This document shows, piece by piece, positions 43,481 to 64,000 of a stretch of DNA of 64,000 nt (the first letter of the stretch is position 1; every line of letters begins with the position of its first letter). The notes under the pieces were generated by a model. The model saw nothing but the letters and a program-made list of their open reading frames with translations, ran no database searches and was not told the DNA's origin. This DNA is from Cenococcum geophilum (taxonomy: Eukaryota): the NCBI GenBank assembly GCA_050273025.1, contig CP158635.1, positions 3,782,001-3,846,000 of the forward strand, given 5' to 3'. Position numbers and translations under genes: made by a program.

Positions 43481-45198
43481 TTGTAAGTATACAATCTTTC
43501 TTTCATTGCTACTCCTGCATCTTGTGCGCTAATGAGGTTGATGAGACCAGAAGAAAAGAGAGTAGCACCACGAGTGCATGGAAGAGAAAGGAGTGCACCT
43601 AGAGAAGCTTTAGAATAATCAATTGGAAGAAATAAATGAGAACACAAGCAGCGCGCCCAACGAAGAAGCTCTAAATAATTTTCAAGTCCGTAGAAATACA
43701 GGGTCACAAAGCACCCGGCTGGTTTAAGGCTACAGCTGATTTAAACCTACAGCTCCCCTCTGCCAGTGCTGAGTCATAGCTACCCACCGGTTTACCTATC
43801 CACATACCGGGAATTGTAATCCCCTCATCCATCATGCTGCACATCAGTACCCGCCGTCTCTGTCACGGCACTATCTAACACGCGTGGCATTACCTTCTGT
43901 GGGCTGCTCGGTGCCTCAGTCGCAGTGAGCGGGTGGGACAGCTTCAGAGATAGCGGCAACAGTGCATGTTGGCATGACAATTCTTCGTTCCCGAAGGGTG
44001 CGGTTCGTATTCTTATCGTTGGCGATGTGCGGGAGTTGGATCAAGCATGGCCTCGTATCGAAGCCTACCGGGGAGATCTTGAGTTGCCCCTTATGGTTAT
44101 GGTGATCTTCTTCAGATCTCGGCCATGGCCATATATAGATAGTCTAATCGAACTTTCGCGTCGAATGACGTTTGACGAGCTTGCGACTATCCGCGTACCC
44201 TCAGTAGGTACCGACCCAGATATGAGGGCAGTGTGAGATTTTTATCTGGCCAAGAAATCAAGTCAGCCCTCAATTCTGGTAACGTTTGTGCCCTTAGTAA
44301 GAAAAGAAGAGCAATGGAGAACGCAGTGGAAGCCTTGCAAGGTCGTATCTCGGCCCAGGAAGGGTCATGTCGTTTTACTTCTGAATTTCGATGTACTGCT
44401 GTGGGTAAAGAATCCCCATATGGTGAAAGTAGTCTATCTCGCTTTGCCTAAGACACATGAAAAAGACAGACGCTAATTCGTGGCTCTCCGATTTCCTCCG
44501 CTGTTCTGGAGGGTGAGCGTCGTGATTCCAACTCCGTGGCCTAGGCGAGCATGGGTGAGCGTGGGGGAGCTGAGAGAGCAGCGATAATAAATAAAACTAG
44601 GTAATCCCTCGCCCGAAACGCAATGAATCTCGATGAACTTCATATTTGACCGTGTTTCCTTCATAGTGTTACTTCAAAGCTATGACTTTGCCTATCAGAT
44701 TTTTCTGGTTGTTCAAGTAAACACGGGGTGATCATCCAGACCTAGGACCCCCGTGTTGTTTCACTTCCCCAATGGGGTTTATAGCACACCTGAACAGGAT
44801 TGATTGAGTATCAGATGCTGTCGTGTCATATTATCTTGGAAAGGTTTCAAAAATGCATAGCAGCGTAGCTAGAGGCTCTATGAAGGAGCCTGATTGCTCA
44901 AAAAATTATCTACAAGGTGGTCCATGCATTGGCCCGTGCGCGTCGCCGAGCTGAAGAGACCCCTACAACATGCTCGTTAACTCAGCTCAAAATCTACGCG
45001 TAGTGCCATACTTTTTGGCCCGTTTGACCACACCGCTGATGCCTGGCAGCCTTACATGCATACTTCTCGCCCAAAGACTTTGGTTGACAACGCCTTCGCA
45101 AGGCTGGGATTATTCATTCCTCCGCTTTCCTTCATCTTGATTAAGAACGGACACTCAGCTGCCGCTAAGCCTTTCGTTATTTGAATTAGGGTAGAGGC

Positions 45199-48100
45199 AT
45201 GTATACTAATTCCACGTTGAAAAGACCCCGCCCTCAACCCGAACAATTTACCGTGGGATGGATCTCCGCTCTGCCCGTCGAGCTTACTGCTGCTACAGCA
45301 ATGCTGGATGAAAAATACGATGACAGCGGTTACACCACCCAGTATACGCTGGGGCGCATCGGTGGACACAACGTCGTTATCACCTGCCTGCCAGCCGGTC
45401 AGTATGGCACAAACTCCGCCGCGGTAGCCGCTACTCGGATGCAATCAGAATTCCGCGCTCTCCAAATCGGCCTTATGGTAGGCATTGGAGGGGGGGTTCC
45501 AAGCCCCGAAGTGGATATTCGACTTGGTGATGCGGTGATTAGTCAACCACAAGCGGGCTACGGGGGAGTGGTTCAATATGACTATGGGAAGACTGGATCA
45601 GGGGGACTATGCACACGGACAGGTTATCTTAACGCACCGCCCGATGTCCTCCTTACCGCAATATCTAAGCTACGGTCGAATATAAGTGCAGGCAAAAGCA
45701 ATCCTAAAGTCCACCTATCACCGCTAGCTCACCTCCCAGAATTTGAACGCCGCAACGCAGGTCCAGATACCCTCTTTCAGTCCCCGTATAGTCACATTGA
45801 AGGACCGACATGCGATCGGTGCCGTAAAGATATGGTAGTCGCACGGATCCCGCGGGAAAGCGAAGAGGTAGTCATTCACTATGGCACAATAGCTTCTGGC
45901 AATCAAGTTATAAAGGACGGGCTCACAAGAGACAAGTTGAGCGCCGAGCTTGGGGGTGTTCTTTGCTTCGAGATGGAGGCAGCAGGCCTGATGAACAGCT
46001 TTCCCTGTCTCATCGTCCGTGGTATTTGTGACTATGCTGACTCGCACAAGAACAAGAAGTGGCAGCCATATGCCGCAGCAGTGGCGGCAGCATGTGCGAG
46101 AGAAATCCTGTCAATTATCCCTACAGGCTCTTATTCGAATAATTATGGCACCGAAGTTACTCAGCAACTTGCTATGAATCCCATAGAGTTAAGTCGATCC
46201 AACGGACCAGATAATATCCCTACTGAAAACATAGCTTCGCTATGTGTGAGATCAGTCCTTACAGCAGCTCAACGCGAAAGCTACCTACATTCTTTGAGGT
46301 TCGATCAAATTGATGCTCGTCACGCGACAATCAGAACCGCCCACGCTAAGACATGTAGATGGTTGCTTAGCAAATCTGAGTATCAAGATTGGCTCGACGT
46401 TAGCAAGCTCTCCGATCATCATGGCTTCTTATGGATCAAAGGAAAGCCAGCTACCGGTAAATCGACAATAATGAAGTTCGCCTATACAGACGCCAAGAAA
46501 AAGAAGGCAGACACCGTTGTTATATCGTTCTTTTTCAATGCAAGAGGCGACGAACTTGAGAAGTCGTCTTTAGGAATGTACCGTTCCCTTTTGTTCCAGC
46601 TTCTGGAGCAGCTTCCAGACCTTCAGGACGTGTTTGACTCCTTACGACCATCAAGGCCAATCAACAGTGACCCTTATAGATGGGATATCGAAATTATTCA
46701 GAGGCTTTTCGAGCATGCGATTAAAAGGATCGGGCAGCACTGCGTGACCTGCTTTGTTGATGCTCTAGATGAATGCGACGAGGATCAAGTGCGAGAGATG
46801 GTGTCATTCTTTGAACAACTAGGGCAACTTGCAATTTCGTCCCAACTTCGATTGCTTGTCTGCTTCTCGAGTCGCCACTACCCACACATTACTATCGAAA
46901 AAGGCATCCAACTAATTTTGGAAGGGCAGGAGGGTCATCAGCAGGATATAGCCAATTATTTGCGCAGCGAGCTAAAAATTGGACGTAGCAAGTTGGCCGA
47001 GCAAATTAAGGCCGAGATACTCGAGAGAGCATCTGGAATTTTTCTATGGGTCGTCCTCGTTATACAGATGCTTAGTAAAGAATATGACCGTGGCCGCATA
47101 CACGCACTTAGGAAGCGGCTTGATGAGATCCCAAACGGATTGGATGAGTTGTTTAAAGATATCTTAACAAGAGACGGCCAGAATATAGAGGAGCTAATTC
47201 TTTGTCTCCAATGCATACTGTATGCAAAGCGGCCTTTCAAGCGTGAAGAGCTCTACTTCGCTGTATTAGCAGGAGTCGCACCTGAGGCGCTGACTGCATG
47301 GACCTCCGAAGAGATTACAGAACAGGACATGGAAAGATTTATTCTAAGTTCCTCGAAGGGACTCGCAGAGTTAACAAAGTCTAAGAATCAAACCGTTCAA
47401 TTCATTCACGAGTCGGTGCGGGATTTTCTCCTTAAAGGAAACGGCCTTGACAGGCTTCGTTCTGACCTTAGAAGTAACTTCTCGGGTCTAAGCCACGAAC
47501 GGCTAAAGCAATGCTGTCAAAACTACATGACGATTGATACTTCCGAGCAACTGGATTTAGTAACACCACTTCCAATTGCATCTTCTGAGGATGCTGCGGT
47601 TCTTCGCCGACAGGCATCTAAAATGTTTCCTTTTCTCGAATATGCAGTACGGAATGTGCTCTATCACGCCGATACTGCACAGGGGCACAGAATCTCGCAA
47701 GATAGGTTTGTTGAAATTTTCCCTCTTCAAAAGTGGATCACCCTAGACAATCTCTTTGAAAGGTATCAGATACGCCGCCATACGTCTGATGCGAGTCTTT
47801 TATATATCCTTGCGGAGAAAAACTTGCCAAACCTCATTTCAATCGAACTAAAACGTGTTCCGCACATGGATATCGAGGGGGAACGCTACAGCTATCCGTT
47901 ACATGCGGCTCTAGCTCACGCGAATGAAAATGCTGTAAGAGCACTTTTAGCCCCAAGCTCTGACCACGACATACTACATGAGCAATCACTCCGTCCTACC
48001 GCCAGAGAACATGAGGAAGTAGTCGAATACTTCATTAGTAAAAGACACGATATCCGTTCCGGGAAGGGCCGGCGTATATTCCCAAAGTCAGTAGAGCGCG

Positions 48101-49398
48101 ACCTTGCACTTTTAAAAGTTCTGCTCGCAACTAGGAAAGTTAACACCAACGCTCAAACTTATTTAAGACGGTTACTGCTGTCGTTGGCGGCAGAAAATGG
48201 GCATGAGGTGATAGTTAAGCTTCTGCTCGCGGACGGCGTCGACATAAACTTCAAGGATTCTACACAGGGACGGACGCCGCTATCATGGGCAGCAGGGAAT
48301 GGACTCGAGGCCATAGTCAAGCTACTGGTTGAGCGGAGCGATATCGAGGCCGACTCAAAGGATAATATGGGTCAAACGCCACTGTCATGGGTGGCAGAGA
48401 GAGGGCACGAGGCCGTAGTTAAGCTACTGGTTGAGCGGAGCGATGTCGAGGCCGACTCAAAGGATAATATGGGTCGAACGCCACTGTCACAGGCGGCGGG
48501 GAACGGGCATGGGGCCGTGGTTGGGCTACTGGTTGAGCGGAGCGATGTCCGGGCCGACTCAAAGGATGCGTGGGGTCAAACGCCACTGTCACTGGCGGCA
48601 GGAAACGGGCATGAGGCCGTAGTTAAACTACTGGTTGAGCAGAGTGATGTCGAGGCCGACTCAAAGGATAATATGGGTCGAACGCCACTGTCATGGGTGG
48701 CAGAGAGAGGGCACGAGGCCGTAGTTAAGCTACTGGTTGAGCGGAGCGATGTCGAGGCCGACTCAAAGGATACGTGGAGTCAAACGCCACTATCACTGGC
48801 GGCAGGGAACGGGCATGAGGCCGTAGTTAAGCTACTGATTGAGCGGAGCGATTTCGAGGCCGACTCAAAGGATAATATGGGTCGAACGCCACTATCACTG
48901 GCGGCAGGGAACGGGCATGAGGCCGTAGTTAAGCTACTGATTGAGCGGAGCGATTTCGAGGCCGACTCAAAGGATAATATGGGTCGAACGCCACTATCAT
49001 GGGCAGCAAGGAACGGGCACGAGGCCGTAGTTAGGCTACTAGTCGAGCGGAGTGACGTTGAGGCCGACTCAAAGGATAATAACGGTCGAACACCGCTATC
49101 ATGGGCTGCAGATAAAGGGCATGAGGCCGTAGTTAAGCTACTGGTTGAGCGGAGCGATGCCGAGGCCGACTCAAAGAATACATATAGTCAAACGCCACTG
49201 TCATGGGCGGCAAGGAACGGGCATGAGGCCGTAGTTAAGCTACTGGTTGAGCGGAGCGATGTCAAGGCTGACTTGAAGGATAATTGGGGTCAAACGCCAC
49301 TGTCACTGGCGGCAGAGAACGGGCATAAGGCCATAGTTAAGCTACTACTTGCCGAAGGAGTTGACACGGACTCCAAGGACAGATATGGTCGGATGTAA
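45199..49398 (+). CDS. Fungal NLR-like protein: PNP_UDP phosphorylase - NACHT - ankyrin repeats, 1399 aa, 3'-truncated by an LTR insertion
   Basis: N-terminal FTVGWISALPVE, GLMVGIGGGVP, FEMEAAGL and IVRGICDYADSHKNKKWQ (PNP_UDP). P-loop GKPATGKST (46441-46467) and Walker B CFVDALDEC. Twelve tandem ankyrin repeats (TPLSxAAxNGHEAVVKLL) from ~48175. Confidence 0.95.
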   Translation: MYTNSTLKRPRPQPEQFTVGWISALPVELTAATAMLDEKYDDSGYTTQYTLGRIGGHNVVITCLPAGQYGTNSAAVAATRMQSEFRALQIGLMVGIGGGVPSPEVDIRLGDAVISQPQAGYGGVVQYDYGKTGSGGLCTRTGYLNAPPDVLLTAISKLRSNISAGKSNPKVHLSPLAHLPEFERRNAGPDTLFQSPYSHIEGPTCDRCRKDMVVARIPRESEEVVIHYGTIASGNQVIKDGLTRDKLSAELGGVLCFEMEAAGLMNSFPCLIVRGICDYADSHKNKKWQPYAAAVAAACAREILSIIPTGSYSNNYGTEVTQQLAMNPIELSRSNGPDNIPTENIASLCVRSVLTAAQRESYLHSLRFDQIDARHATIRTAHAKTCRWLLSKSEYQDWLDVSKLSDHHGFLWIKGKPATGKSTIMKFAYTDAKKKKADTVVISFFFNARGDELEKSSLGMYRSLLFQLLEQLPDLQDVFDSLRPSRPINSDPYRWDIEIIQRLFEHAIKRIGQHCVTCFVDALDECDEDQVREMVSFFEQLGQLAISSQLRLLVCFSSRHYPHITIEKGIQLILEGQEGHQQDIANYLRSELKIGRSKLAEQIKAEILERASGIFLWVVLVIQMLSKEYDRGRIHALRKRLDEIPNGLDELFKDILTRDGQNIEELILCLQCILYAKRPFKREELYFAVLAGVAPEALTAWTSEEITEQDMERFILSSSKGLAELTKSKNQTVQFIHESVRDFLLKGNGLDRLRSDLRSNFSGLSHERLKQCCQNYMTIDTSEQLDLVTPLPIASSEDAAVLRRQASKMFPFLEYAVRNVLYHADTAQGHRISQDRFVEIFPLQKWITLDNLFERYQIRRHTSDASLLYILAEKNLPNLISIELKRVPHMDIEGERYSYPLHAALAHANENAVRALLAPSSDHDILHEQSLRPTAREHEEVVEYFISKRHDIRSGKGRRIFPKSVERDLALLKVLLATRKVNTNAQTYLRRLLLSLAAENGHEVIVKLLLADGVDINFKDSTQGRTPLSWAAGNGLEAIVKLLVERSDIEADSKDNMGQTPLSWVAERGHEAVVKLLVERSDVEADSKDNMGRTPLSQAAGNGHGAVVGLLVERSDVRADSKDAWGQTPLSLAAGNGHEAVVKLLVEQSDVEADSKDNMGRTPLSWVAERGHEAVVKLLVERSDVEADSKDTWSQTPLSLAAGNGHEAVVKLLIERSDFEADSKDNMGRTPLSLAAGNGHEAVVKLLIERSDFEADSKDNMGRTPLSWAARNGHEAVVRLLVERSDVEADSKDNNGRTPLSWAADKGHEAVVKLLVERSDAEADSKNTYSQTPLSWAARNGHEAVVKLLVERSDVKADLKDNWGQTPLSLAAENGHKAIVKLLLAEGVDTDSKDRYGRM
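48175..49393 (+). repeat. Array of 102-bp (34-aa) ankyrin repeat units with high internal DNA identity
   Basis: GAGGCCGACTCAAAGGAT...ACGCCACT recurs with a 102-bp period. 48783-48999 holds two identical consecutive units. Confidence 0.95.
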
Positions 49399-49926
49399 CG
49401 GAACCTTATAGCAAGGACTACGATGGGCTCGTTATTAGGCTAGGTGTGTAGGTGATACAAATTAAAGTCAATAACGTAATAATAATTGGTGGAGTGGTTG
49501 CCCAATAGATTAACTCTAATTATATTCTAAGAATTACTATAAGGAAGGAACTATCTAGGTAGGGATTAAGGGTCCTTAAATATATAACCGTACTCCTATA
49601 AAATCCTTCTTATACATAATATATATATACTCTATTTACTCTATTATAGATTATATAGATTATATAGATTATATAAATTACGTTATATAATCTTAGTTAC
49701 TATTCCTTATTATATAGCTCTATTAGCTCTATTTTAGACTATGCCTATATTAATTAACTAGCTTCTTTTAACTTTTCCCTAAGTAGTTATAATATTATAC
49801 TTAAAGCGTTTATAATACCATCTCCCTCCTCTCTATTTTTATCTTTAAAGATTCTTAATATCTCTAAGTTATTTACTAGAGGTATAATGTCTATTTAATT
49901 AATTTAGTTAATATTATTACTTATTA

Positions 49927-50038
49927 GGGCTTCATGAAATCGGCCTCTGCACCTCCACGCGGTGGAGCCCGGGAACCTGGCAGTACTATTGATGTTCCGT
50001 TAGGATCGTGTCAATAGACTACCAGAGCAAACGCAGAG
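49927..50038 (+). ncRNA. HDV-like self-cleaving ribozyme (predicted)
   Basis: P1 GGGCTTC 49927-33 / GGAGCCC 49964-70. P2 CTCTGC 49945-50 / GCAGAG 50033-38. P3 ACC/GGT closing L3 TCCACGC. GG 49971-72 is available for P1.1. P4 hairpin 49977-50025. J4/2 AGCAAAC contains candidate catalytic C50028. Confidence 0.85.
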
Positions 50039-50931
50039 ACGTCCGTACGGCTGCGCACCGCTGGCGCTGCGACGGGTGATTGCGAAGAAAGAAGTTTCTG
50101 TTGGGAGGGTGAGCCCTAATAAGGCCTTAGGAACACGACCAACTCGTCTTTACATACGGTCGACCTACTCGAATCACGGCATCTAAATTGGCGTCCTCCT
50201 TCTATATAGCATGGTACGCTATACTACACGACCCTATATAGTATATACGTACGCCTTGCAGGCTAAAGCCCGTAATAAGCCTCTTTATCTACCTACCTTC
50301 TAAAAGCCTCTCGTCCATTGCCTTTTAAGGCCTCTTATCTACCCGCCTTTATTATTACTTAATAGCTTAGACCTGCCGCACGCGGTATATATCCTCCTTT
50401 GTGTTATAAAGGACCTAGGTTAGGGCCCTAGGAAAAGACACCTAGCACTAATTACTATCCCGTTATTTTAGTTTTAAAAAAGGTTATATAGGACTAGATA
50501 TAAATGCATTATATAGGAGGGCAGTAGATTATACTAAAAGGTATAATAATAAGATTGGATTATGCTATAAGTAGGGAAGCTATAAGTAGCATATATGTAT
50601 GCATACAGGGCGGAGTAGAGAAAGGGCAGGTATATAATTCCATATAGGCAACAACAAATAGGGAAAGTGGTTTAAAAGGTAGATAGGGCAAGACAGGCAT
50701 TTAAGACACCTTCTTTAGGGGTCTCTAAGCAGTAACCTAACGGTGTTTTTTCCCCCGTTAATGTAGTACGAATGCTATCTGGAAGTATTACCTCTTACAT
50801 TTCCCTTAGGGGTTTTTTGTTTACCTAAAAAATGGGTTTTTCTCAGTATATATATTAAGTTTTTACTATAGGAATTAGTCTACGTGGACCTATTAGGGGG
50901 ACTAGGTCGGACGGTAAATTAAATTTATTAT
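49927..50931 (+). mobile_element. ~1.0 kb non-autonomous non-LTR (SINE-like) retroelement with a ribozyme head and LINE-like tail
   Basis: Flanked by TATTATTACTTATTA (49912-49926 and 50932-50946). The empty site is visible in the paralogous LTR element near 63215-63229. The 3' end resembles the LINE 3' ends in this window and finishes in (TTA)n. No ORF of 60 aa or more in the track. Confidence 0.85.
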
Positions 50932-53653
50932 TATTATTACTTATTATACCTAAAGCAATTTCTTTTTTAACTACTCGTCGTGTCTATACTATTACTGCGA
51001 TATTGTCTCTTAATAAGATTATATTATCTCTATATTCTCGTTACTTAAAAGAGGGGTTAGTTTACGTTATATTAGTAAACCTGTCTTCGCGATAACTATC
51101 CTCTTACTTAAAGTGTACTAAAGCGAATATTTATTTATCCTATAATGTTTGCTCCGTCTTTAATACTAAATATATATAACCTATTACTCTTAATAGTTAT
51201 CTAGTTTCTTAATTAATTTATCTTAGGGTTTTATATTTAATCTACTGCTACACAGCTAGATAATAAACTGTCTATTACTTTAGCGAAGTTATGCCGTTTT
51301 TATAATACTAAATAAGAGGCTGCTAAAGCTTAGTAAAGAGCCCTTAATTCTCGCCTTACTACATCCACTTAGTTAATCCGTCTTAAAAAGGTCTGTAAGA
51401 AGGTTTATTTTAAGGAGTAGAAACTTATAGAATAAGGTTTATAGGAACTTAATAATAAAAAAACGAATTTTTTTCTTATTAAGAAGGAAATAGATCTAAG
51501 TAGTTTAGCAACTACTCTTCTTAGGTCCCCCTTAGGTAACTTATTTTTTAGCAATCCTTTTTTATTAATACTACCTAACCTAATCTCTTCTAATACTCCT
51601 ATACCTTTCCTATAGTATTCCTTAAATTCTCTAGTAGTTCCTAGGTAGTTTTATTATAGCCTATCTACTTAACCTTATACTATATTTTATTATTAATATC
51701 TTTATAACTAATAATCTTTAAAACTTACTATTTATCTTCTTCCTATCCTTTCTACGTGTCTACTTTATAGATTAATGGCTTAATATTTCTATATACTAGC
51801 TTTAGCATTATAATATACTATATAGGGTAGATCTTTATTTTAGCTAGTAGGTTTAACTTAAATATAACTAATAAAATCTTCTATATAATTTTAAAAGGTC
51901 CTAGTCTAACATAATCTAACTTTTTACTTAGTTATTAACTCTTAAAATTTTTATATAGTAGCTATACTTTATCTCCCTCCTTAAGATCTAATCCCTTAGA
52001 TCTCTTAGCATTATAGTACCTTTTTATTTTCTCTTATACTGTTTTTATTAATTCTATAAGGTCTATATAAAGATTTATTAACGTCTTTATTCTTTCCTTA
52101 GCTATACTACTTATCTTCTTTACTTACTATAGTAATAATAATATTCTTGGCTTATATCCGTAATTTGCCTTAAATAGTAATATACCTATCCCTTTTTAAG
52201 GTATTATATTATATGCAAACTATATAACTAGTAATAATAATACCCAATTATTTTACGCGTAATTAATATAGTATTTTAGGTACTACTCTAGTATCTAATT
52301 TAATCTTTCTGTTTAACCGTCTATCTGCGGATAATATATAGTAAAAGTTACTACTCTTACTCCTTATTCCGCTAAGAATACCTCCTAAAATACTACTATA
52401 AATCTTAGATCTCTATCTAATATAATCTTGCTTAGTACTCTATATCTTATAAATACTTCTTTAATATAGATTTTAGCAATATCTTCTACTAATATTTCTT
52501 CTATATATACTATAAAGTATCCCTACTTTATAAGCTTATCTACTATTACTAAGATTATATTATAATCTTATCTGGTAATAAAATCTCTTAACTTTAGTAA
52601 CTTAATAATAAAGTTTTATAATATAACCTCTTATAGTCTTTCTAGTATCTTAATAAGTTATAGCCCTCTATATAGTTTATACCTTATTAGTTTATTTCTT
52701 TAGCAATTTAAATATTCTTTTATAACTTTTTACGCTAAGCCTTAGATTCTATTAATAATATACTTCTCCTAGAGTCTTAACACTAAGCTTATAGCTCTAT
52801 TATATCCTTAAGTTAATCCCTTATAGAAATCTTCCATAAATTATTCTGCTATGCTTTTTAAGATATACTTTACTTCTTAATTTTTATATATATCTATTTA
52901 TAGATCTTTTAGCTATACTTTTAGAATCCTTTATACCTAAAAGCTCCCTAGTAACTTATAAACTTTTTCTAGTTCTTTTTAAGTTGCTATAATCTTTAGA
53001 TAATTATATCTAATTACTCCGTCTATATCTTTTTATAGTAAAGCCCCTAATAGCCTTTTATTATTTTACAGTTTAGCCCTTTAGCTTAAAGTATTTGCTT
53101 ATATATTATCTATACCTTTAGTATACTAAATTTTAAAATAGTATTCTATAAGTATCTCTGCCCATTTAACCTATCTTTAGTTAAGTTTCTTTATTATTAA
53201 GAATCCTATTAGGTTCTTATAATCCGTCTTAACTATAAATAGTTTCTCTATACCTTATAAGAATGCTCTCTATTTTTTTAGTACTATAACTATACTTAAT
53301 AACTCCTTATTATAGATATTGTAGTTTAACTCTAGTGGTATTATCTTCTAACTATAGTATGCCACTAGGTGCTATCTATCTTAATATTTTTATATAAAGT
53401 ATACCCCTAGTATAAAGTCTAATATATCCGTTTCTATAACTATTTCTAGTCCTAGTTAATAAATCTTAAGAACTAGCTCCTGGGTAAATAACTCTTTAAC
53501 TTTTTTTAATAACTTTTACTATTCCTTTCCCTATGCCTATAGTTCTTCTTTCTTTATTAATCGCGTAAATGGTTTAATATCCTTTAACTATTGCGCTATA
53601 AACCTTCTATAGTAATTATAAAACCCTAAAAATAATCTTAACTATATAACGTT

Positions 53654-56600
53654 GTCTACTAACGAAAGCGCAGCGGGATCTAATATATATACTCTTATAC
53701 TAATTATATAATATATTAAGAATCTATTTAAAAGGAGCTCTTGCTGCACCCGGCCCAAAAAGACCAAAACCAACCAAAAGAACCCTGAAAAACACCTAGA
53801 GAATCCCCCTGAGATACATGCATTGCAGGGGAGGCACACGTCTAACGACGGTGGCTCGCACTCGCGCGCGACCGCTAGAACTACGCCTAGTAATGGCCCT
53901 CCATAACAAAGACGGGCGAATACTACACTATAAAGCGGAAATACCTCTATTAAGAAGGCATCTAACAAAATATAAAGCTTATTGGACGCGTCTAGTATCT
54001 AAAATTGTGGGGGAGTAACTGTTAGCTATAACGAACTAATATAGCTAGTAGAATAGCTCCGCCAGTCTAGCGAACCTTAGGCGCCCCTTTAGTAAACCCT
54101 TAATTAAATCCTTTAACGGCTAAGCAAAATTAAAAATAAGTATAACCCCCCTTTACCGGCGAACCGCACCTGGGCCGCTATAGCTATACTTTTATAGTAT
54201 AGGGAACTTACCCCCCTTAAGTTAATAACCGGGTATATAATTATAATATAACCAAATATAGAACAAGTAGAGGGGCTTAGGGGATAATTAGAAATAGAAG
54301 TTCTTATAGAGATACGTAAAGAGGTCTATAATATTATTATAGTCCAATACCTTAAGAGCGGAGACATTAGAGTTACCTTAAAGGACTAATAGGTAAAGGA
54401 ACGAGCTGTAAAGGCAGGGGATAGGCTAGGAGAACGTATTAGCATAAAAGTACTCCGTAAGGATTACTCAGTTAAAGTCCTAGCGGTTCCTATAAGCCTT
54501 AGGGTAGAAAAGGGACGCTAGGCAGATAATATAGCAATTATATAGGAGATAGTAAGATAAACGGAACGCCTTATACTAGGACTCGAAATTACCCAAATCT
54601 AATGGCTTTAATAGGAAAATATAAACTAAGCATATAATAAGAATAATAAGAGGATATAAGGGTCGCTAAAGACTTGCTAGGGAGACGCTAGACGAACGCA
54701 TAGCTTCCTTATTATTAGTATATATACACTAGGAATGCAAAAACTTCTTATCTAAAAAGGAATAATTATAAATGGCCTTATATATAACATAAGGCTCTAT
54801 AATTATAGACTACGCCTAAAATAATGCTATCGCTATATATAATGGGGACACACCTAATCTATATGCGCAGTATAGGTATACTACGGCCACTATGCAGGCC
54901 CCCATAATATAAGATATTACTTAAATTAAGACTAAACAAAATGCGCGAACTGCTACTAAAGCACATATAAGGCGTGGGAGAGAGAAGACTGCATTAAATA
55001 TAGGAGACGGAAGGCAAGGGCTTAACAGCTGCGGGAATAACTATACGCTAGGTTATACGAATGGAAACAATAGGCGATAAGCTAGGGGGATATAGGCGCC
55101 TTCCTAGCGTTTCCTACCTTTAATACTAGAGGGCTAGGCCAGCCATCCCAAGCCTTAACGGGCTAGAAGCGACGCTGTGCGATATTACTAAACCGATTAG
55201 GGACATAAGGGTTATAGGGGACATAAGGGAGAGAATGCCCCGTAGGAAGACCCCTATAGACAGTAATAGTAGGCTTAAGACTAGGATAATTAAGAATTAG
55301 ACTTAATGCGGCAAATATAATATTTATAGCCGACCTATAAAGGGTATATAGCCAATTAGTAAGAATAGGGGAAGAACCGGTAATAATAATAGATTTAGAT
55401 ATAGAAGCGCTAATAGGAATATAAGATATGGAAATGGAAAGCTTTATACAAAATAAGTAGTAACTAGGGTATAGATATAAGAGATAGAAGCTCTAAATAT
55501 CCTAAAGAAAGTAGAAATAGAAGAAGTAAGGAATAAAAGAAAGTTAAAGGACCCTTACTAGGGGTCCGCCACCTATCTATTATATAGTATAACTGCGGCA
55601 ATATAAACCACCGCCTTATAAGGCCCCTACTAGACAGTCTAGACCTAGAGAAATATTATATCCTTGCTATATAAGAACCGTATTATAATACCTTTATATA
55701 ATTAATATACTGCCCCTAAGGATTCTAGCTCCTATATAAACTAAAAGCAGCTATACGCGTGTGCTTTATAATTAGTAAGGCTATTAGCCTGTTCTTATAG
55801 TTATAGTAGGTAGTTAACCTAAATATTATAGTTATAATAATCTAAACATATAGGGGACCGGTATAAATTATTAATGTATATAACCCTAGGGTTAAAGGGG
55901 TCCTATAAATAGAGAATATTATATCGGTAATAAGCTTACTAGAAACTAAAGGTATAGAGTTTATTCTACTAGGAGACATAAACCTCTACTACCCGCAGTA
56001 GGGGGGTATCTATATTACTGTAGATTAACAGTTAGAGTGCCTACTAAGAGCTATAGATATCTAGGACCTTAAGCTAGCTACCCCCCTAAGAGTAATTATA
56101 TGGTAATGAGGCACCGCTAGAAGTATAATTGACCTTATATTTATAGATGAAGGCCTATACTAGAGACTTAAAAGGTATAACCCCAAAGAAGAATGGGCAC
56201 TTACCCTAGACTATATCCCTATCTAGATATAGCTAGACCTAAATACTAAAGCGTAATTAAATAGAAAAAGATACGCAATAAGGAAGCTTAAGATAGATAG
56301 TTTCCTTAATATAGTTAAACAATAACTCTAAAACCTAAAAGAAATCCACCTAATACCAAATGAGTAAGGCTTATTGGCTACCCCTAAGGAAATCAACTGA
56401 AGACTAGAAAGGATCTAGGTAGCGATTAAAAATAGGCTAAAAAAGTACTGCCTAATCTTAAAACTAGGCCCCTACGCGCGATATGTATAGTCTATATAAT
56501 ACGTAGTTCTAGTTACTAGCTAATAATAAGCAAGAAGGAAATATATAAGTAGCTATAACCCTAAAGACAAGAGACGATATAAAGATATAAGAAACCAGCT

Positions 56601-59269
56601 AAAGAATACCCTAAAAAAAGAAGTAAGGAATAACTGGAGACGGTTTATAAACGAGTATACTTTTAACCTAAGCCTCCCCCATAATAAGGGCCTTTAGGCT
56701 ATAGCAAAATAGGTAAAGAAAAAGGCAGGGCGCCTAGCAGAAGACCTATACCTACTACCCCTATAAAGAGTAGGAGAATTATAGGCTATAAATAATAATA
56801 ATAAGAAGGCAAAGATCCTTACAGAAAGGTTCTTCCCCTAACTAGCTCTAGTAGACCTTAGTAATATTACGGGCAAAACACCGGTGACTTGCCTGTAGGT
56901 TAATAGCGACATAATAACAGAGGAAATGGCTAGAACTATTAGCCGCCTTTTAAATAATATAGCACTAGGACTAGATGGGATTCTAAATAAGGCCCTAAAA
57001 ACCTATAGGCTACTTATAGCACCTTAGCTTATAGATATAGCCAGAGCATACTTTGCTATAGGCTACTACCCGCAATTTAGAAGATCTATAATAATAGTTG
57101 TTCTATAAAAAGAAGGTAAAGCAGATTACTTAATCCTAGAAAGCTACCGCCCTATTACCTTAGAAAACACCTTTAGCAAGATCTTAGAAAGGGTAATAGC
57201 GAAATATATAGCAGATACGGTAGAGGAATATACCTTACTACTATAAAGCTAAATAGGGGTAAGAAAGAACCGCTTAACACTATTAGTACTTACGCTACTC
57301 ACTACCACTATTAAATCTGTATAGGCGATGTGAAAGGACTTTATAGTATTAATGCTTAGCCTAGACATTAGTAGTGCCTATAATAATATACCCCACGAGC
57401 GTCTCCTATATATCCTTAGGGCAAAGGGCTTCCTAAAATAGATTATATAATTTGTCTAAGGGTTTATAGGCCAGAAAGAAATATTACTAGTCTTTAGCGG
57501 ATACTAGAGCCCCCCTATTGTAATTACAATAGGAATACTATAAGGATTACCCCTCTCGCCTATACTCTTCTTTTTCTTTATAAGCAACCTACTTAACTCT
57601 TTTAAAAAAGGGGCAACCTAGGGGATAGGCTTTATTAACAATATAAACCTAATTATATACGGGCCAATAGCCGCAGAGAATTGCAGAACACTAGAGAAAG
57701 CCTATAACACTTATATAAAATAGGCAAAACGTTATAAAGTCTAATTCTTACCAGAGAAATACCAGCTAATCTATTTTATAAGAAAACGTAACTAATCTGC
57801 AGATCTCTAGCATATAATTCGTATTTAAGGCTTTAGGGGTTAACCAGTTTAGGGCCTAAGGGTATTAGGAGTATAGGTAGACAGTAAGCTCTAGTGGAGC
57901 GTATATGCGGCGTAAGCGGCCTATAAAGGCTAAGTATAGTTTATCGCTTTATCCAGGATTGTTAATTCTATATAGGGTCTATACTTCTAGAGGTTACGCC
58001 TACTATATATAGCAGTCGTCTGGCCAACTATAACATATAAATCTAGTATTTGGGCTATTAGAGAAACTAAAAAGGGCCCCCCTAAATTACTCCTTAAACC
58101 ACTTTAAAAGGTCTAGATAGCCTACCTTTAGAGTATTACAGGCGGGTATAAGCGAACGGCCACAGCACTGCTTAAGAAGGAATCTAATATTCCCCCCCTA
58201 TAGTTATATATTAAAGCCGCTGTAATATAAAGGACGTAAAATAAACACAACTCTAATATTATAAAGTATATTAAGACACGCTTAAGTAAACTATGGAGGG
58301 ATTCTAGGGTGTTCTGTAGGAGAATAAACCAACAACCCTAAAGTAGGGAAGAGATATTAGAGAAACAGGTAAAGAAAGCAGAAGAAGAATAGGGCCGCTT
58401 TAGGGCCCAGGCCTATATAGAGGAGGAAGGGAGACACGTAAGAGGTTAGTAAAGACAGCAAGATAGAGAAAGGAGCTAAAGTAGAACACGTAAGAACGCT
58501 AGGAAACCATCTACCGCAATACAATACTGGTTGGACTAACGCTGGAGAGGTAAATGGGAGTCAAAGGTATAGAGGCTAATTTAGGCAAGATGAATCTAAG
58601 CTATAGCATAGTTAACGCTATAGGGGGTAAATACCTAAGGGCTTTAAGAAGGCCTAATAAAGGCAGAAAATATAATAGTAACACTTTTAAGAACAGGAAT
58701 AATAGGACTAAAAGATTGGCTTTACTAGGTGGGTATTCTAGTAGGTAGCCTAAGATATAAATGTGGCTGGCTAAGACAGATACCAAAACACGTAATACTG
58801 CTATACCCCCTACGCACCAATTAAGAAATAATGCTCTTAGTAGCTAGTATAGAGAACTATAATATACTACTCTTAACATAAAAAGGCCTTAAGGCGGTTA
58901 CCCAGTGGCTTATTAGTTAAAATGTGCTAAATTAGTTCCGGGTTGTAAGGGAAATAGTAATAAAAGGCAAGGGGGCGAGCAGCAGGTGCCCCCTAGTAAC
59001 TCTATAGTAGTAAAGTAATAGTTTATAATACTAGCGCGTCCGTAGGCTTATTACGGCAGTAGTGGTTCCTAAGGAGGTTAAATAGTAAGGTAGTAGAGCA
59101 CCATAGGCGACTTATAGGCGCTAAGTAGGCGAGTCCTAAAAGGCGGGGAGATGGATTACGGGGTTTTCTCATTTTTCTTAAATAGAGTTTTCTCCCTATA
59201 TATAAATAAGAAGTAGTCCGCGTAGGCCTAATAGGGATCCAAATCGGACGTTAAGCAATGAATTATTAT
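53654..59269 (+). mobile_element. Tad1-like LINE, copy B, apparently full length (~5.6 kb), RIP-degraded, TSD TATATAACGTT
   Basis: TATATAACGTT at 53643-53653 and 59270-59280. ORF1 from ATG 53818 with CCHC relics (~54825-54970). ORF2 ~55450-59010 with endonuclease and RT relics. (ATT)n tail. Colinear with copy A. Confidence 0.93.
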
Positions 59270-62200
59270 TATATAACGTTCTCTAGTTCTTACCAATTTA
59301 CTATAGCCTTAATTTTCTTTAGATCTATACTAAGTTAGCCTAGTTTAATAATAAATCTAATAAAATTGGTCTTCTTAGTAAAGAACTCGTATTTTTTAAT
59401 TGCTACTAGCATCTATTCTTCCTATAATCTCTTTAAAACCCATTTAATATATTCTCCGTATTCTTCCTTAGTTATTAAGTAGATAATAATATTATTAAGG
59501 TATACCATAATAAATTTATCTAAGTGTTCTCCTAATATATTGTTAATACGCTTTTAGAATATTACTAGTGCGTTTATAAGCCCGAATTGCATAACTAATA
59601 GCTTATATAGTCCTTCCTTTAACCTAAAGGCTACCTTTTATTTATTGCCTTCCTTAATCCTAATTTAATAGTACGCCTATCTTAGATCTATCTTTATAAA
59701 GATTTATATATTGCCTATCTAATTCTAGATTTCGCTAATTAAGGGTAAAGGATACCTATCCTTCCTAGTAATACTATTTAACTGTCTATAGTTAATATAC
59801 AGCCTTAGTTTACCGTTTTTCTTTAGTATAAATAGTACTAGATAACCCGCTAATGACTATAATAGTCTAATATATCCCTTTTATAGATTTTCTTAGATAA
59901 ACTCTTTTAGGGCTCTACCTTCTTTTTTAGTAAGGTTATAAATTAGAAAGAACCTTAAACTTATTTTTAGTTCTAATTCTATTTTATAGTCCTACGCTAT
60001 ATACTTTAATAGCTTTTTACTTTCTAGTAACTATAGTTTTTTACCGTACTTATAGTATCTCTTTAGTATATAACTTAAGCCTCGCTTAGTCTCTTTATAT
60101 ATTGCTTTAGCTTAGTACTATATTAACTTAGTTTATTATCGCATCTTATGGTATTAAGTATCCCTAATATTAACCTAACCTATAATCTAATTAATCCTTA
60201 AATTATATTCCTATAACTAAGGCATGCCTAATACTACCTTATCCCGTCCTAATAGTAGGATATTAAAAGACATCTTAATTTATCTTCCTTTAATGGTTAA
60301 TTAAATAGGTCCTATTTTAAGATTAATAATCCCTCCTTTATAGGCTATTAGATTTCCTAAAATTGTAACTAATAGGTAAGGTTATTCCTTCTATCTATGC
60401 GGTAATCCTATTCTCTTAACTACTGCTAATAAGATATGGTTTTATATTACTCTACTATCTATTAGTACTTCGAACTGCTAATCTTACCACTTAACTTATA
60501 AATTTAGGTGTTATCCTTAAATTCCTTTAAGGGTTTAAGGCTCTACTACTAGTTCCCTTTGGTCCCGTAGGCCTCTACTTTTCCTAACTATTAGCTACTT
60601 AATCTTATTACACTTAGCTCGCTCTTTAGCTAGTATTTAGTTCGTTTTTTATCTTTAATATGCTATAGATACGTATTCTCTAGGTATTCCTACTACTATC
60701 GTCTATCTAGGCATTTTTCTATAAGGAATCTTCCTAGCTAAAGTATTAAGTCCCCTTAGCTTTGCACTTCTACTAGGTGCTAACTATATATATACTTAGC
60801 GTTTCTATATTTCGCCTTATCTAATAACTAATGCATTCTTACTGGATATTTTTAGTTCTAATTCTTTAGTGTTCTATATATGTTATATATATTATCTATA
60901 TATACAATTTATGCTAATATATAATATGCTAGGTGTTTTAGGTTAACTCTTAGCTTATCTTTATTCTTAAGTTTAAACCTTTTTTATATTAATCTAAGCG
61001 TTATAACTTTATTTGCAGGTACTATAATTTACCTCTTACTTCTCTAGTCCTCTAATTACTCCTCTAAATCTTTTAACGTCATAATTAAGGCTCCTTTAAT
61101 ATAACTTATAGCCTTTTTTATAATCGGGTGGTCCTAAATAGCTTTTTCATCTAACCATATATAAAAATCTTCCCACTTATTGTTATGCCTCTGCCTATAC
61201 TACTTTTAGTATAGCTGCTAAAGTGTATATAGCTCGTCTATAAGGAAGTATTTTCTCATTACTATATTGTAATAGCCCTTTATATATCGTTCTTTAAACC
61301 TAGTTAGAATCTCTAGATCCTCTTCTTATTCCAGTTTAGTAAGCTACTTAGCTCTTAGTGTGCCTACCCTAGGCCTATTAGTAATTTAGCGTATAGGTAC
61401 TTTACCCCTTATACGTCCTAGTATGCTAAATCTCTTATCTAGTTTCTATTCTTGCTATAAGGTAATTCTTACTTTAAATTCCTCTATAGTTTCTTTCTTT
61501 TTGCGTCTTATAAGTAGATCCTTAAAGTTCTCTTACTTCTTAATCTTGCTATTAGTTCTCCAATCTTTAGGTTAAATACTATATTCTCTTAGTAAGTCTT
61601 TTAGGTCTATATATCTGTCTCCTAGTCTAATTACTATTTAAATTGCAGATTCTCTATTCTATAAAGAGATTTCTTACCTCTTATTTATAGGTGCCTTTAT
61701 TTATACTCCAAATTCTTAGTTCCTTAGATTTTTTAATCCTAAGCCTACTTCTAACTTAAGCTTAGCTCCTACCTTAGTCTAACTAGGCTTAAGTATTCTT
61801 ATTTTGTCTTAAGAATCTTAAATCTTACTTATCTTATCTTAAGAATCTTATACCTATAGGAAACTCTATCCCAAGCTTATTTATATATCTTTAAACTAAG
61901 CTACTACTCTACTCTATTAGTTTTTATCCGTTATAGGTCCTTAAGCTTACCTTACCTTATCTTAAAAATCTTAGTCGTCTTATATCTCGTCTTAAGAATC
62001 TTAAGCTTTTAGCCTTTTGCCTTTATTAAGTGCTAAAGTAGTTCGCTACTTTATTTCTTTTACGTCTTATAAAGCAATAGACATTATATCTAGTGGGGTC
62101 TTAATCCCTACTAATATTCCCTATTCTATAGTGGAATTATCCTCTGCCTCTTATATAATATCTCTAAGGTCTATATACTTCTAATAAGCTGCCTTTATTA

Positions 62201-62696
62201 CCTTATTATTATAAAATGTTTCGCCTACGTTAAATTTATTATCCTTAATATCCAATCTATAAACTAGTTTATTAGTTCCTTTATATTTTGCTAAATATAG
62301 CTCCTATAGCTAATAGCTTGCGCTATACTTAGCGTCCTTATAAATTTAGTATACGTTATTATAACAGAACGCAAAACTTTTAATTAAATATTCTTTTATT
62401 CCTCGTAGTATATTATCGTCCCTTTATACATATATATTATCTATTAGTCTTATTCCTTTTACTATATAGTAACTCTAACCACTTTTATAGTCTCTAACGT
62501 AATAACCTTATTTTCCGTAATTTATATAAGCTCCCTTTTTAAACTATTTTTCTTATTATAGAGTCCGCCTAAACGTCTTCTACTGCTAAGATCCCTAATT
62601 TAGCCTCTATTCCTTAGTCCTATAATTACTAGACCCTTAACCTCTAGGTTTTTATAGTTTTTTACTCTATCTTTTATAGGCTTCTTTAGTACTACT

Positions 62697-64000
62697 TATA
62701 ACGGAACCTTATAGTAGATACTACAATAGGCTTATTATTAGGCTAGGTATATAGGTAATGCAAATTAAAGTTAATAACGTAATAATAACTAGTGGAGTGG
62801 TTGCCTAATAGATTAACTCTAATTATATTCTAAGAATTACTATAAGGAAGGAACTATCTAGGTAAGGACTAAGGGTCCTTAAATATATAACTATACTCCT
62901 ATAAAATCCTTCTTATACGTAATATACGTATACTCTATTTACTCTATTATAGATCCTATAGATCCTATAGATTATATAAATTATATTATATAACCTCGGT
63001 TACTATTCCTTATTATATAGTTTTATTAGCTCTATCTTAGACTATATTTATATTAATTAACTAGCTTCTTCTAACTCTTTTTTAAGTAGTTATAATATTA
63101 TACTTAAAGCGTCCGTAACACTATCTCCCTCCTCTTAATTTTTATCCTTAAAGATTTCTAATATCTCTAAGTTATTTACTAAAGGTGTAATATCTATCTA
63201 ATTAATTTAGTTAATATTGTTGCTTATTATACCTAAAGCAATTTCTTCTTCTTTAACTGCTCGTCGTATTCGCACTATTACTGCAATATTATCTCTTAGT
63301 GAGATTATACTATCTCCGTATTCTCGCTACTTAAAAAAGGGGTTAGTTTATATTGCGTTAGTAAACCCTTCTTTATAATAACTATCCTTTTACTTAAAGT
63401 ATACTAAAGTAAATATTTATTTATCCTATAACATTTGCTTTATTTCTAATACTAAATATACGCGACCTATTACTCTTAATAGTTATCTAGTTCCCTAATT
63501 AATTTATCTTAGGGTTTTATATTTAATCTACTGCTATATAGCTAGATAATAAACTATTTATTACTCTAGTAGAGTTATACTAATCCTAAGACGCTAAACG
63601 GGAGGCTACTAATGCTTAGTAATGGGCCCTTAAGTCTTATCTAGCGGTATTTACTTAGTTAATTTATCTTAAGAAGGTACGTAAGAAGATTTATTTTAAG
63701 GAGTAGAAACTTATAAAATAGGGTTTATAAGAACTTAGTAATAAAAAAACGGATTCTTCTCTAACTAAGAAGGAAATAGATCTAAGTAGTTTGGCAACTA
63801 CTTTTCTTAGGTCCCCCTTAGGTAACTTATTTTTTAGTAATCCTTTTTTATTAATGCTACCTAACCTAATTTCTTTTAATACTCCTATACCTTTTTTATA
63901 GTATTTTTTAAATTCTCTAGTAGCTCCTAGGTAGTCTTAGCGTAGCCTATCCACTTAACTTTATACTATATTTTATTATTAATATCTTTATAACTAATAA
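62697..64000 (-). mobile_element. 3' end of a second G1-family Gypsy element (G7); 3' LTR 62697-63120, PPT, 3' region and chromodomain running off the window
   Basis: Colinear with 49394-49926 plus 50947-51715, differing mainly by transitions. It lacks the 1-kb insert. Confidence 0.9.

Follow-up and report, generated by a model that had tools for sequence, protein, structure and literature searches.

A hepatitis delta virus-like ribozyme fold begins at the first base of a SINE-like retroposon insertion in Cenococcum geophilum

Ribozymes of the hepatitis delta virus (HDV)-like class are established at the 5' ends of the R2, RTE, Baggins, and L1Tc elements (PMC6765202, PMC3185411). In the L1Tc/NARTc system, an HDV-like ribozyme within the first 77 nt releases the RNA from longer transcripts (PMC3185411). 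Fungi also possess HDV ribozymes: Li & Breaker (2017, BMC Genomics 18:785, PMC5640933) list 230 representatives from 26 species, credit 11 fungal examples to Webb et al. 2009, and report that constructs from Penicillium chrysogenum and Aspergillus niger cleave at the base of P1 in vitro. In the fungal variants, a C-G pair stands at the cleavage site, an E-loop takes the place of part of P4, and P2 is separated from P3 by an extra nucleotide; "widely variable gene associations" are also noted for them (PMC5640933). Their biological role is left open, and the main text contains neither "transpos" nor "retrotransposon" (0 occurrences) and draws no link to transposons (PMC5640933). Here we analyze a 64,000-nt stretch of DNA from C. 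geophilum (contig CP158635.1 of assembly GCA_050273025.1, positions 3,782,001 to 3,846,000 of the forward strand; hereafter the window), in which an HDV-like fold stands at the start of a non-autonomous retroposon copy of ~1005 bp (49927-50931, + strand). The copy quite likely represents a high-copy family of C. geophilum and its relatives that resembles short interspersed elements (SINEs), lacks open reading frames (ORFs), combines an HDV-like ribozyme head with a tail derived from or shared with a long interspersed element (LINE), and would spread by the mechanism set out below.

An earlier note, made from the letters of the window alone, had described an HDV-like fold at the start of this insertion, and the observation was confirmed: all elements of the nested double pseudoknot lie where the note had placed them, in canonical order, within the first 112 nt of the element (49927-50038, +). 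Numbering the ribozyme from G49927 (position 1), P1 comprises 7 bp between 49927-49933 (GGGCUUC, 1-7) and 49964-49970 (GGAGCCC, 38-44), including one G.U pair at T49932. P2 pairs 49945-49950 (CUCUGC, 19-24) with 50033-50038 (GCAGAG, 107-112) over 6 bp, and P3 pairs 49951-49953 (ACC, 25-27) with 49961-49963 (GGU, 35-37) over 3 bp. The enclosed L3 (49954-49960) reads TCCACGC, to be compared with UCCUCGC, which we take to be the L3 of HDV itself. Its C49955 and C49956 (C29 and C30) are able to pair with G49971 and G49972 (G45 and G46) as P1.1, followed by J1.1/4 (GAAC, 49973-49976) and a long P4 (49977-50025, 51-99) with one C.A mismatch at C49981/A50021 (C55/A95). After AG comes J4/2 (CAAAC, 50028-50032, 102-106), the first base of which, C50028 (C102), is the candidate catalytic cytosine of the HDV-like class and presumably corresponds to C75 of the HDV genomic ribozyme.

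The same note had pointed to an HDV-like descriptor and to Rfam models as a check, and the outcome was split: the descriptor recognized a single site in the window, and Rfam returned sub-threshold matches only. The descriptor was generic and was composed post hoc, with the sequence already known; it calls for a 7-bp P1 without mismatches whose first base is G, a P2 with 5-8 pairs, a P3 of three Watson-Crick pairs, an L3 of 7-8 nt in which positions 2-3 are CC, a GG behind P1', a stem for P4, and C-N2-4 ahead of P2'. One match was obtained in the window, with both strands scanned, and 0 matches in Markov-1 random sequence (3 x 4 Mb, modelled on the window, its genic part, or the element). The sequence of the fold fits the HDV-like class, yet is a member of no curated Rfam family. 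The nested minimum free energy is unremarkable (z -1.55; 14 of 200 shuffles fold equally well), a measure that is uninformative here because the fold is a pseudoknot.

The fold starts exactly at the 5' boundary of the insertion. The 200 nt to the left of 49927 match a paralog of the flank at 63030-63243 (+) with 87.5% identity, and the 44 nt to the right of ~50917 match the same paralog with 86.4% identity, as one continuous stretch with the left match. This empty-site paralog has the insertion-site flank without the element and reads ...GCTTATTA|TACCTAAAGC across the insertion point (also rendered ...ACTTATTA|TACCTAAAGC); the junctions of the filled site read ...ACTTATTA|GGGCTTC on the left and ...ACTTATTA|TACCTAAAGC on the right. 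Because the paralog is uninterrupted across the site, G49927 is the first inserted base, directly after the left target-site duplication, as the earlier note had held. Empty sites of the flank repeat are also marked by contigs from two DNA runs, 18 from X1 and 14 from X6, which go on with TACCTAAAGC past 49926. The target-site duplication is a 15-bp exact repeat, TATTATTACTTATTA, with its left copy at 49912-49926 (no strand) and its right copy at 50932-50946 (no strand); the left end of the right copy merges with the (ATT)n tail of the element, such that the border between the two is ambiguous. Among the 19 family copies that have 20 nt or more of 5' flank, 12 are bounded by exact duplications of 11-17 bp, and one more copy has 6 bp.

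We searched for relatives by scanning metagenome contigs for the P3-L3-P3' core followed by seven free bases (P1') and GGGAAC, a pattern with 19 specified bases, which yielded at least 120 loci. Judged by their printed sequences and pairings, 104 among the 120 loci listed belong to the family of the window copy, and nine belong to other HDV-like families with the same core; L001/L072, L017/L108, L039/L115, L117, and L119 have perfect P1 and P2 helices and are members of such other families, and the ninth locus is L045, in which five of seven P1 positions pair. The remaining seven (L041, L057, L058, L062, L067, L083, and L102) are GC-rich chance matches without P1 or P2, roughly as many as expected for 19 fixed bases by an uncomputed estimate. 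The first 125 nt of the window copy are 100% identical to L009, which is another insertion, and the available parts of L034, L068, L070, L075, L089, and L094 are likewise 100% identical, with different flanks. No further copy of the element was found in the window. The element is present in runs labelled organism A and organism B and in root, soil, and "fungus" metagenomes. One locus, L085:16-96 (-), is a natural minimal ribozyme of 81 nt, with P1 and P2 identical to the main family and a 7-bp hairpin in place of the long P4.

Most copies of the element start at the same base. Among 100 listed family copies with at least 47 nt upstream of P3 (the window copy included), 93 begin with RRRCTYN at G1, and these have 93 different upstream flanks. 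The mean frequency of the most common base is 0.44 in the 20 nt upstream of G1, which are 76% A+T, and 0.86 in the 20 nt downstream. The seven exceptions are L018 and L030, with altered first bases, L026, which lacks the 5' strand of P1, and L027, L076, L086, and L105, which have a conserved leader upstream. Upstream of G1, the 93 copies share a weak motif (T 0.60, A 0.73, T 0.51, and A 0.54 at -14 to -11), seen as a TTATA signal 10-14 nt upstream, at about the start of the duplication, and position -1 is an A in 58% of them; this upstream motif suggests a preference for AT-rich nick sites.

Conservation within the main family follows the predicted pairings. We aligned 40 main-family ribozymes, 39 of them distinct, with MAFFT (alignment A5). 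In A5, 95.3% of the cells are paired, compared with 31.6-41.7% after a shift of the 3' partners by 1-3 columns; changes on both sides affect 26 cells, compared with 10.3 ± 2.3 in shuffles (reached by 0/500), and the covariation score also lies above the shuffles (0/500). G1-C44 at the cleavage site is present in 37 of the 39 distinct sequences, and C50028 is invariant in 40/40 rows of A5 and in 17/17 rows of a cross-family alignment, A3. RNAalifold on A5 alone predicts P1 (6 bp), P3 (extended by C24-G38), and P4. The changes within the main family are mostly transitions, and the covariation across families is stronger evidence than that within the family.

For the comparison across families, we built a covariance model (R1) from A5 with P1, P3, and P4, leaving out P2. 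R1 scores 49927-50038 of the window, which is among the sequences of the model, at 138.5 bits, and it scores other families at 79.4 (L039/L115), 39.0 (L108), 37.3 (L017), 30.3 (L119), 30.0 (L001/L072), and 29.8 bits (L117); L085, with its 7-bp P4 hairpin, reaches 70.7 bits. Chance loci that share the 19 fixed bases score 8.4-20.0 bits. In an R1-fitted alignment of 32 sequences (A7), with P2 excluded from the pair count as it is cut or gapped in the short families, both sides have changed in six of the seven P1 pairs, transversions included (GC to CG; CG to UA or AU). Here, 95.5% of the cells are paired, compared with 30.7-44.8% after sliding, and all five measures beat the shuffles (0/500). 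The MAFFT cross-family alignments A3 and A4 were left out of the pair counts because the 5' strands of P1 are out of register in them. An explicit helix table lists five distinct P2 helices, each with complete complementarity (CUCUGC/GCAGAG, CGUCGC/GCGACG, GACUCU/AGAGUC, GACUCAA/UUGAGUC, and GCUGGU/ACCAGC), and five different P1 helices across families, fully paired except in L045. The covariation that the earlier note had looked to in other copies is thus present in P1 and P2 across families, and in P4 two pairs, 53-99 and 68-87, alternate between GC and AU. In Rfam, the only matches of four representatives (the window, L017, L001, and L045) are HDV-class families, all below threshold: L017 matches HDV_ribozyme with 35 bits (threshold 50), L045 matches drz-agam-1 with 26.2 bits (37), and L001 matches HDV_ribozyme with 29.4 bits (50) and HDV-F-prausnitzii with 28.2 bits (44).

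One detail of the earlier note was not supported. It had attributed the mismatch in P4 to a change of the repeat-induced point mutation (RIP) type in this copy, and the mismatch proved to be shared by most of the family: the position is unpaired in 30 of the 39 distinct sequences, C-G in seven, and U-A in two. As the first 125 nt are identical to L009 and others, the mismatch is a trait of the family or subfamily and not damage to this copy. The pair at T49932 (position 6) is C-G in 27 and U-G in 12 of the distinct sequences, U.G in the window copy, as would fit a C-to-T change within a subfamily. In the body of the element, the differences between the window copy and the family are mostly A>G and T>C, with the RIP-type base on the side of the window.

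The architecture of the element is SINE-like. It has no stop-to-stop ORF of at least 80 aa in 49927-50931, its target duplications vary, it ends in a simple-repeat tail, and its copies are many and dispersed. Family members are ~740-1070 bp long. A 5' module of ~150-190 nt, made up of the ribozyme and another ~40-80 nt, and a 3' module of ~270-300 nt are common to them, the middles being variable; the members end in ...GGTAAATTGAATCTATTATTA(TTA)n. In the window and the loci listed, 32 of 32 copies of the 3' module stand behind a ribozyme, with an exact core 524-983 nt upstream of the module in 29 and a mutated core in three. The RNA polymerase III head of canonical SINEs is missing: no tRNA, 5S, or 7SL head was found in an Rfam scan of 49000-51000, nor any rRNA around the insertion. 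Contigs of the DNA runs X1 and X6 reach a summed depth over the ribozyme part (49926-50051) 4-20 times that of most bins of 50052-50930, and RNA contigs of run X11 cover the ribozyme bins 20-40 times as deeply as the body; this excess suggests that the head is common to more subfamilies than this body.

The tail links the element to a LINE. In a six-frame translation of 50947-64000, in which X replaced the stops, we found a RIPped non-LTR (lacking long terminal repeats) LINE copy at 53776-59272 (+), the candidate partner, with a reverse transcriptase at ~57124-57870 (+; RVT_1, 2.9e-13). Its closest solved relatives are R2 (2.3e-9) and LINE-1 ORF2p (1.4e-8), so we regard it as a generic non-LTR reverse transcriptase. 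The 3' module of the SINE-like copy (50806-50934, +), which ends in ...TCGGACGGTAAATTAAATTT(ATT)n, aligns over its 129 nt with the 3'-terminal 117 nt of the LINE (59156-59272), ~8 kb downstream, with a local score of 83, compared with 28.9 ± 4.3 (maximum 46) in 200 shuffles; over these ~117-129 nt, the similarity is moderate and is not identity, and it represents a 3' end shared with a LINE. A second LINE copy (11548-14873 and 20766-22953, +; 88.6% and 87.5% identity) is split by ~5.9 kb, and a third lies in L077. The three LINE copies and two SINE-like copies align through ...TAGTC.GCGT.GGCCTAATAGGG...TCGGACG.TAA...(ATT/AAT)n. The 5' regions of the SINE-like element and the LINE show no similarity (score 30, shuffle mean 33). 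As head and body are unlike the LINE and the tail is LINE-type, the element is not a simple internal deletion of these LINE copies.

The mutual homology of the two LINE copies in the window starts at the same point (~53776 and 11560), and the LINE copies may all be truncated at one point. No LINE endonuclease domain was found in Pfam at E<=1 in three frames, with stops as X; APE-like motifs were seen by eye, from which we draw no clade claim. The LINE interrupts a Ty3/Gypsy-like element of the - strand between its RVT_1 region, near 59.4-59.8 kb, and its RT_RNaseH region, near 53.1-53.5 kb. This host element, within ~51000-64000 (-), is RIPped as well, and the sign of the GC skew flips at both LINE borders. 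A ribozyme at the LINE 5' end was sought and rejected, the nearest model match (54300-54403, 9.1 bits, E 2.6) being at noise level.

L045 was likewise rejected as an autonomous partner, for it has cnidarian relatives, pairs only five of seven positions in P1, and scores 13.5 bits, below the chance matches with 20.0 and 18.9 bits. Its ribozyme core (L045:124-200) is identical and lies 210 nt upstream of an intact R2-like ORF of 1085 aa (325-3579) with a reverse transcriptase followed, by eye, by C-terminal CCHC and PD..E.K-like motifs; its closest named relatives are from corals and sea anemones, and a tblastn search with this protein against the window and all loci returned only itself. The ORFs behind the ribozymes of the short families contained no reverse transcriptase.

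Transcripts of the family are present in RNA data. In the stranded RNA run X21, the three bins of 42 nt that precede 49926 have depths of 0, 0, and 1.3; from 49926 on, the depth is 98, 405, 770, and 906 for reads with the first mate on the - strand and 5.5-13 for those with the first mate on the + strand, such that ~98% come from one strand. The pattern is consistent with + strand RNA of the family in libraries of the usual stranded type. The signal stems from other copies, because just 24 of the 2788 reads reach 99% similarity and 2506 overlap the window only in part. It is compatible with, and not proof of, a 5' end at G1. Metatranscriptome contigs of run X11 also cover the ribozyme part.

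Several results weigh against a ribozyme that defines the 5' end of this element. In an Rfam scan of 49000-51000 at E<=10, the sole match was drz-agam-1 with 17.6 bits (gathering threshold 37, E 2.5), and none of the curated HDV-type families (RF00094, RF01787, RF02682, and others) reached its gathering threshold. Within A5, neither the pairs with double changes (6, shuffle 4.3; 39/500) nor the further pair types (20, shuffle 20.2; 433/500) beat the shuffles, and covariation by transitions within the family is weak evidence because RIP itself yields G-C to A-U transitions. A7 was fitted by the model to P1, P3, and P4 and favours these helices; P3, L3, and P1.1 were set by the search pattern and are uninformative. 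The GGGCTCG subfamily (17 of the 93 copies) forms just six P1 pairs, and in L027, L076, L086, and L105 a conserved leader of ~220-240 nt precedes a ribozyme with two P1 mismatches, such that these copies do not start at G1. Exact matching shows no duplication in six of the 19 copies that have 20 nt or more of 5' flank; at least one of the six differs, by eye, by a single transition. No ribozyme is detectable at the shared 5' start of the two LINE copies in the window. In X21, the zero depth upstream may reflect clipping, because the flanks differ between copies, and a pile of read starts at 49927 is not among the rows listed (three of five).

The leader lies at L027:2523-2739, L076:89-306, L086:1-206, L105:41-282, and L056:1774-1994 and also occurs in L008:1-128 and L069:1-112. 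It begins with GGAACACCAAAATCGAGATCC, and the ribozyme behind it has the P1 5' strand CGACTCY, with the two mismatches; the junction of leader and ribozyme is present in RNA contigs of run X11. The leader of L027, L076, L086, and L105 gave no Rfam match and no second match to the covariance model.

The earlier note had proposed that the element is cut out of read-through transcripts by its own ribozyme, and a conserved, covarying fold at the exact 5' end of a non-LTR insertion supports that reading. From these sequence features, we infer catalysis and cleavage in vivo: the ribozyme very probably cuts the element's own transcript free. With no tRNA, 5S, or 7SL head, the element would be transcribed from whatever lies upstream or from some other promoter. 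The ribozyme would then cleave directly 5' of G1 (G49927) and leave a defined 5' end. A LINE reverse transcriptase, possibly that of the candidate partner, would recognize the shared 3' tail and start target-primed reverse transcription at AT-rich sites, where the (UUA)n tail would anneal to the nicked target. A ribozyme-defined end combined with target-primed copying would explain why full-length copies have their first base precisely at G1 and lie between target duplications of ~11-17 bp.

One alternative concerns the window copy and not the family and is compatible with this mechanism: that the copy is a dead relic, its fold kept by youth only and its locus neither transcribed nor cleaved. 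We regard this question as evenly balanced. The copy sits in a RIP-degraded, AT-rich repeat (GC 0.29 at 49500-49999), its body carries the RIP-type state, and its own flanks show no RNA depth; the latter is uninformative, however, because X21 may be from another strain. Nothing in the sequence disables the ribozyme, since the ribozyme part is identical to other copies, which speaks against a relic in this part of the element.

A second alternative accepts the conserved 5' structure as real and denies it self-cleavage in the cell; it could act as an internal promoter, as a module for RNA stability or protein binding, or as a site recognized by the reverse transcriptase, with G1 set by transcription initiation. 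We consider this unlikely. What is conserved is the HDV catalytic core, that is, C50028, L3, the GG of P1.1, and the cleavage-site base pair; P1 and P2 covary as helices and not as sequence; related fungal HDV variants cleave in vitro (PMC5640933); and a promoter has no need of a double pseudoknot. The idea gains some weight from Pr77 of L1Tc, which is promoter and ribozyme at once (PMC3185411, PMC3383444), from the lack of read-through RNA upstream of 49927 in X21, and from the predicted nature of the cleavage. A chance resemblance to HDV in a GC-rich stretch, which the unremarkable nested minimum free energy and the sub-threshold Rfam match might suggest, is refuted by 0 descriptor matches in 12 Mb of random sequence, by more than 100 homologous copies with a conserved, covarying fold, and by the exact coincidence with the insertion boundary.

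The insertion lies downstream of an intact ORF of 1402 aa (45190-49398, +) of the NLR (NOD-like receptor) type, with PNP_UDP, NACHT-like, and ankyrin repeat domains. Over the N-terminal 620 aa, it shares 96% identity with a protein of Cenococcum geophilum and 76% with one of Glonium stellatum, which places the window in C. geophilum or a very close relative. Between the end of the ORF and the RIPped repeat into which the element inserted lie ~530 bp, and GC falls from 0.51 to 0.29 over less than 500 bp. At the scale of the genome, C. geophilum consists of 78% transposable elements, RIP extends over 73% of the genome, and Tad1 is the dominant LINE (2026, PMC12910237).

If the element is released by its own ribozyme, this locus and its 100 or more relatives join the fungal ribozymes to the 5'-end processing of non-LTR elements and give them a concrete, testable role as retroposon heads. 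A ribozyme head on an element that takes only its tail from a LINE would explain exact 5' ends in the face of a missing promoter. Tentatively, one may go further and suggest that the many HDV ribozymes of ascomycetes head a separate type of SINE, in which the ribozyme has replaced the RNA polymerase III head, the tail comes from a LINE without a ribozyme, and the element lives by read-through, with hundreds or thousands of copies in Cenococcum. Both the link of fungal HDV ribozymes with retrotransposition and the mosaic of head and tail appear to be new: we found no fungal retroposon headed by an HDV-like ribozyme in the literature searched, which was accessible in part and largely without subscription journals and Repbase reports, and the Cenococcum ribozyme literature found there concerns introns only. 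For work on ribozymes, the family also offers naturally occurring variants of P1, P2, and P4.

Ruminski et al. 2011 and Webb et al. 2009 reportedly described HDV-like ribozymes in the R2, RTE, and Baggins elements of animals. These elements carry the same ribozyme class at non-LTR 5' ends but are autonomous (PMC6765202). L045, of the cnidarian R2-like type, has the identical 13-nt P3-L3-P3' core followed by GGGAAC, with P1 paired in five of seven positions. The fungal variants of Li & Breaker (PMC5640933) resemble the ribozyme of the element in host and in fold: they likewise are HDV-class double pseudoknots of filamentous ascomycetes with many copies per genome, and their C-G pair at the cleavage site is matched here by G1-C44 (37/39). 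Their extra nucleotide between P2 and P3 is present, as a C, in the short families L001, L017, L108, and L117; unlike in those variants, P2 of the window family can abut P3, and the assignment is ambiguous, as C24 is able to pair with G107 or, according to RNAalifold, with G38. The ribozyme of the element probably belongs to, or adjoins, the published fungal HDV class, and the window family may be among the 230 representatives.

The element as a whole can be compared with further known systems. Canonical SINEs, Schistosoma SINEs, and retrozymes have a similar order of head, body, and LINE-derived tail and a similar LINE dependence (PMC6765202, PMC7761336). Unlike canonical SINEs, the window family lacks a tRNA, 5S, or 7SL head; unlike Schistosoma SINEs and retrozymes, its ribozyme is of the HDV type and not a hammerhead, and with a single ribozyme no circular RNA is expected. 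L1Tc and NARTc of Trypanosoma cruzi (Sanchez-Luque et al. 2011, PMC3185411) likewise form a pair of a LINE and a non-autonomous partner, but NARTc shares its ribozyme head with L1Tc, whereas here the head was not found on the candidate LINE; moreover, the host belongs to another kingdom, and the ribozyme is longer (112 nt, with a long P4). R2 short internally deleted elements (SIDEs) are also short, ORF-less, and non-LTR, with an exact end set by a 5' HDV-like ribozyme and a 3' end recognized by a LINE (Eickbush & Eickbush 2012, PMC3414825). They are internal deletions of R2, site-specific in insect 28S rDNA (PMC3414825), whereas the window family inserts at many AT-rich sites (93 distinct flanks), is neither an internal deletion of R2 nor located at the R2 site of 28S rDNA, and matches a LINE only in its tail, the LINE copies being without a ribozyme. 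The element of C. geophilum would work like the R2 SIDE and NARTc systems and is a member of neither.

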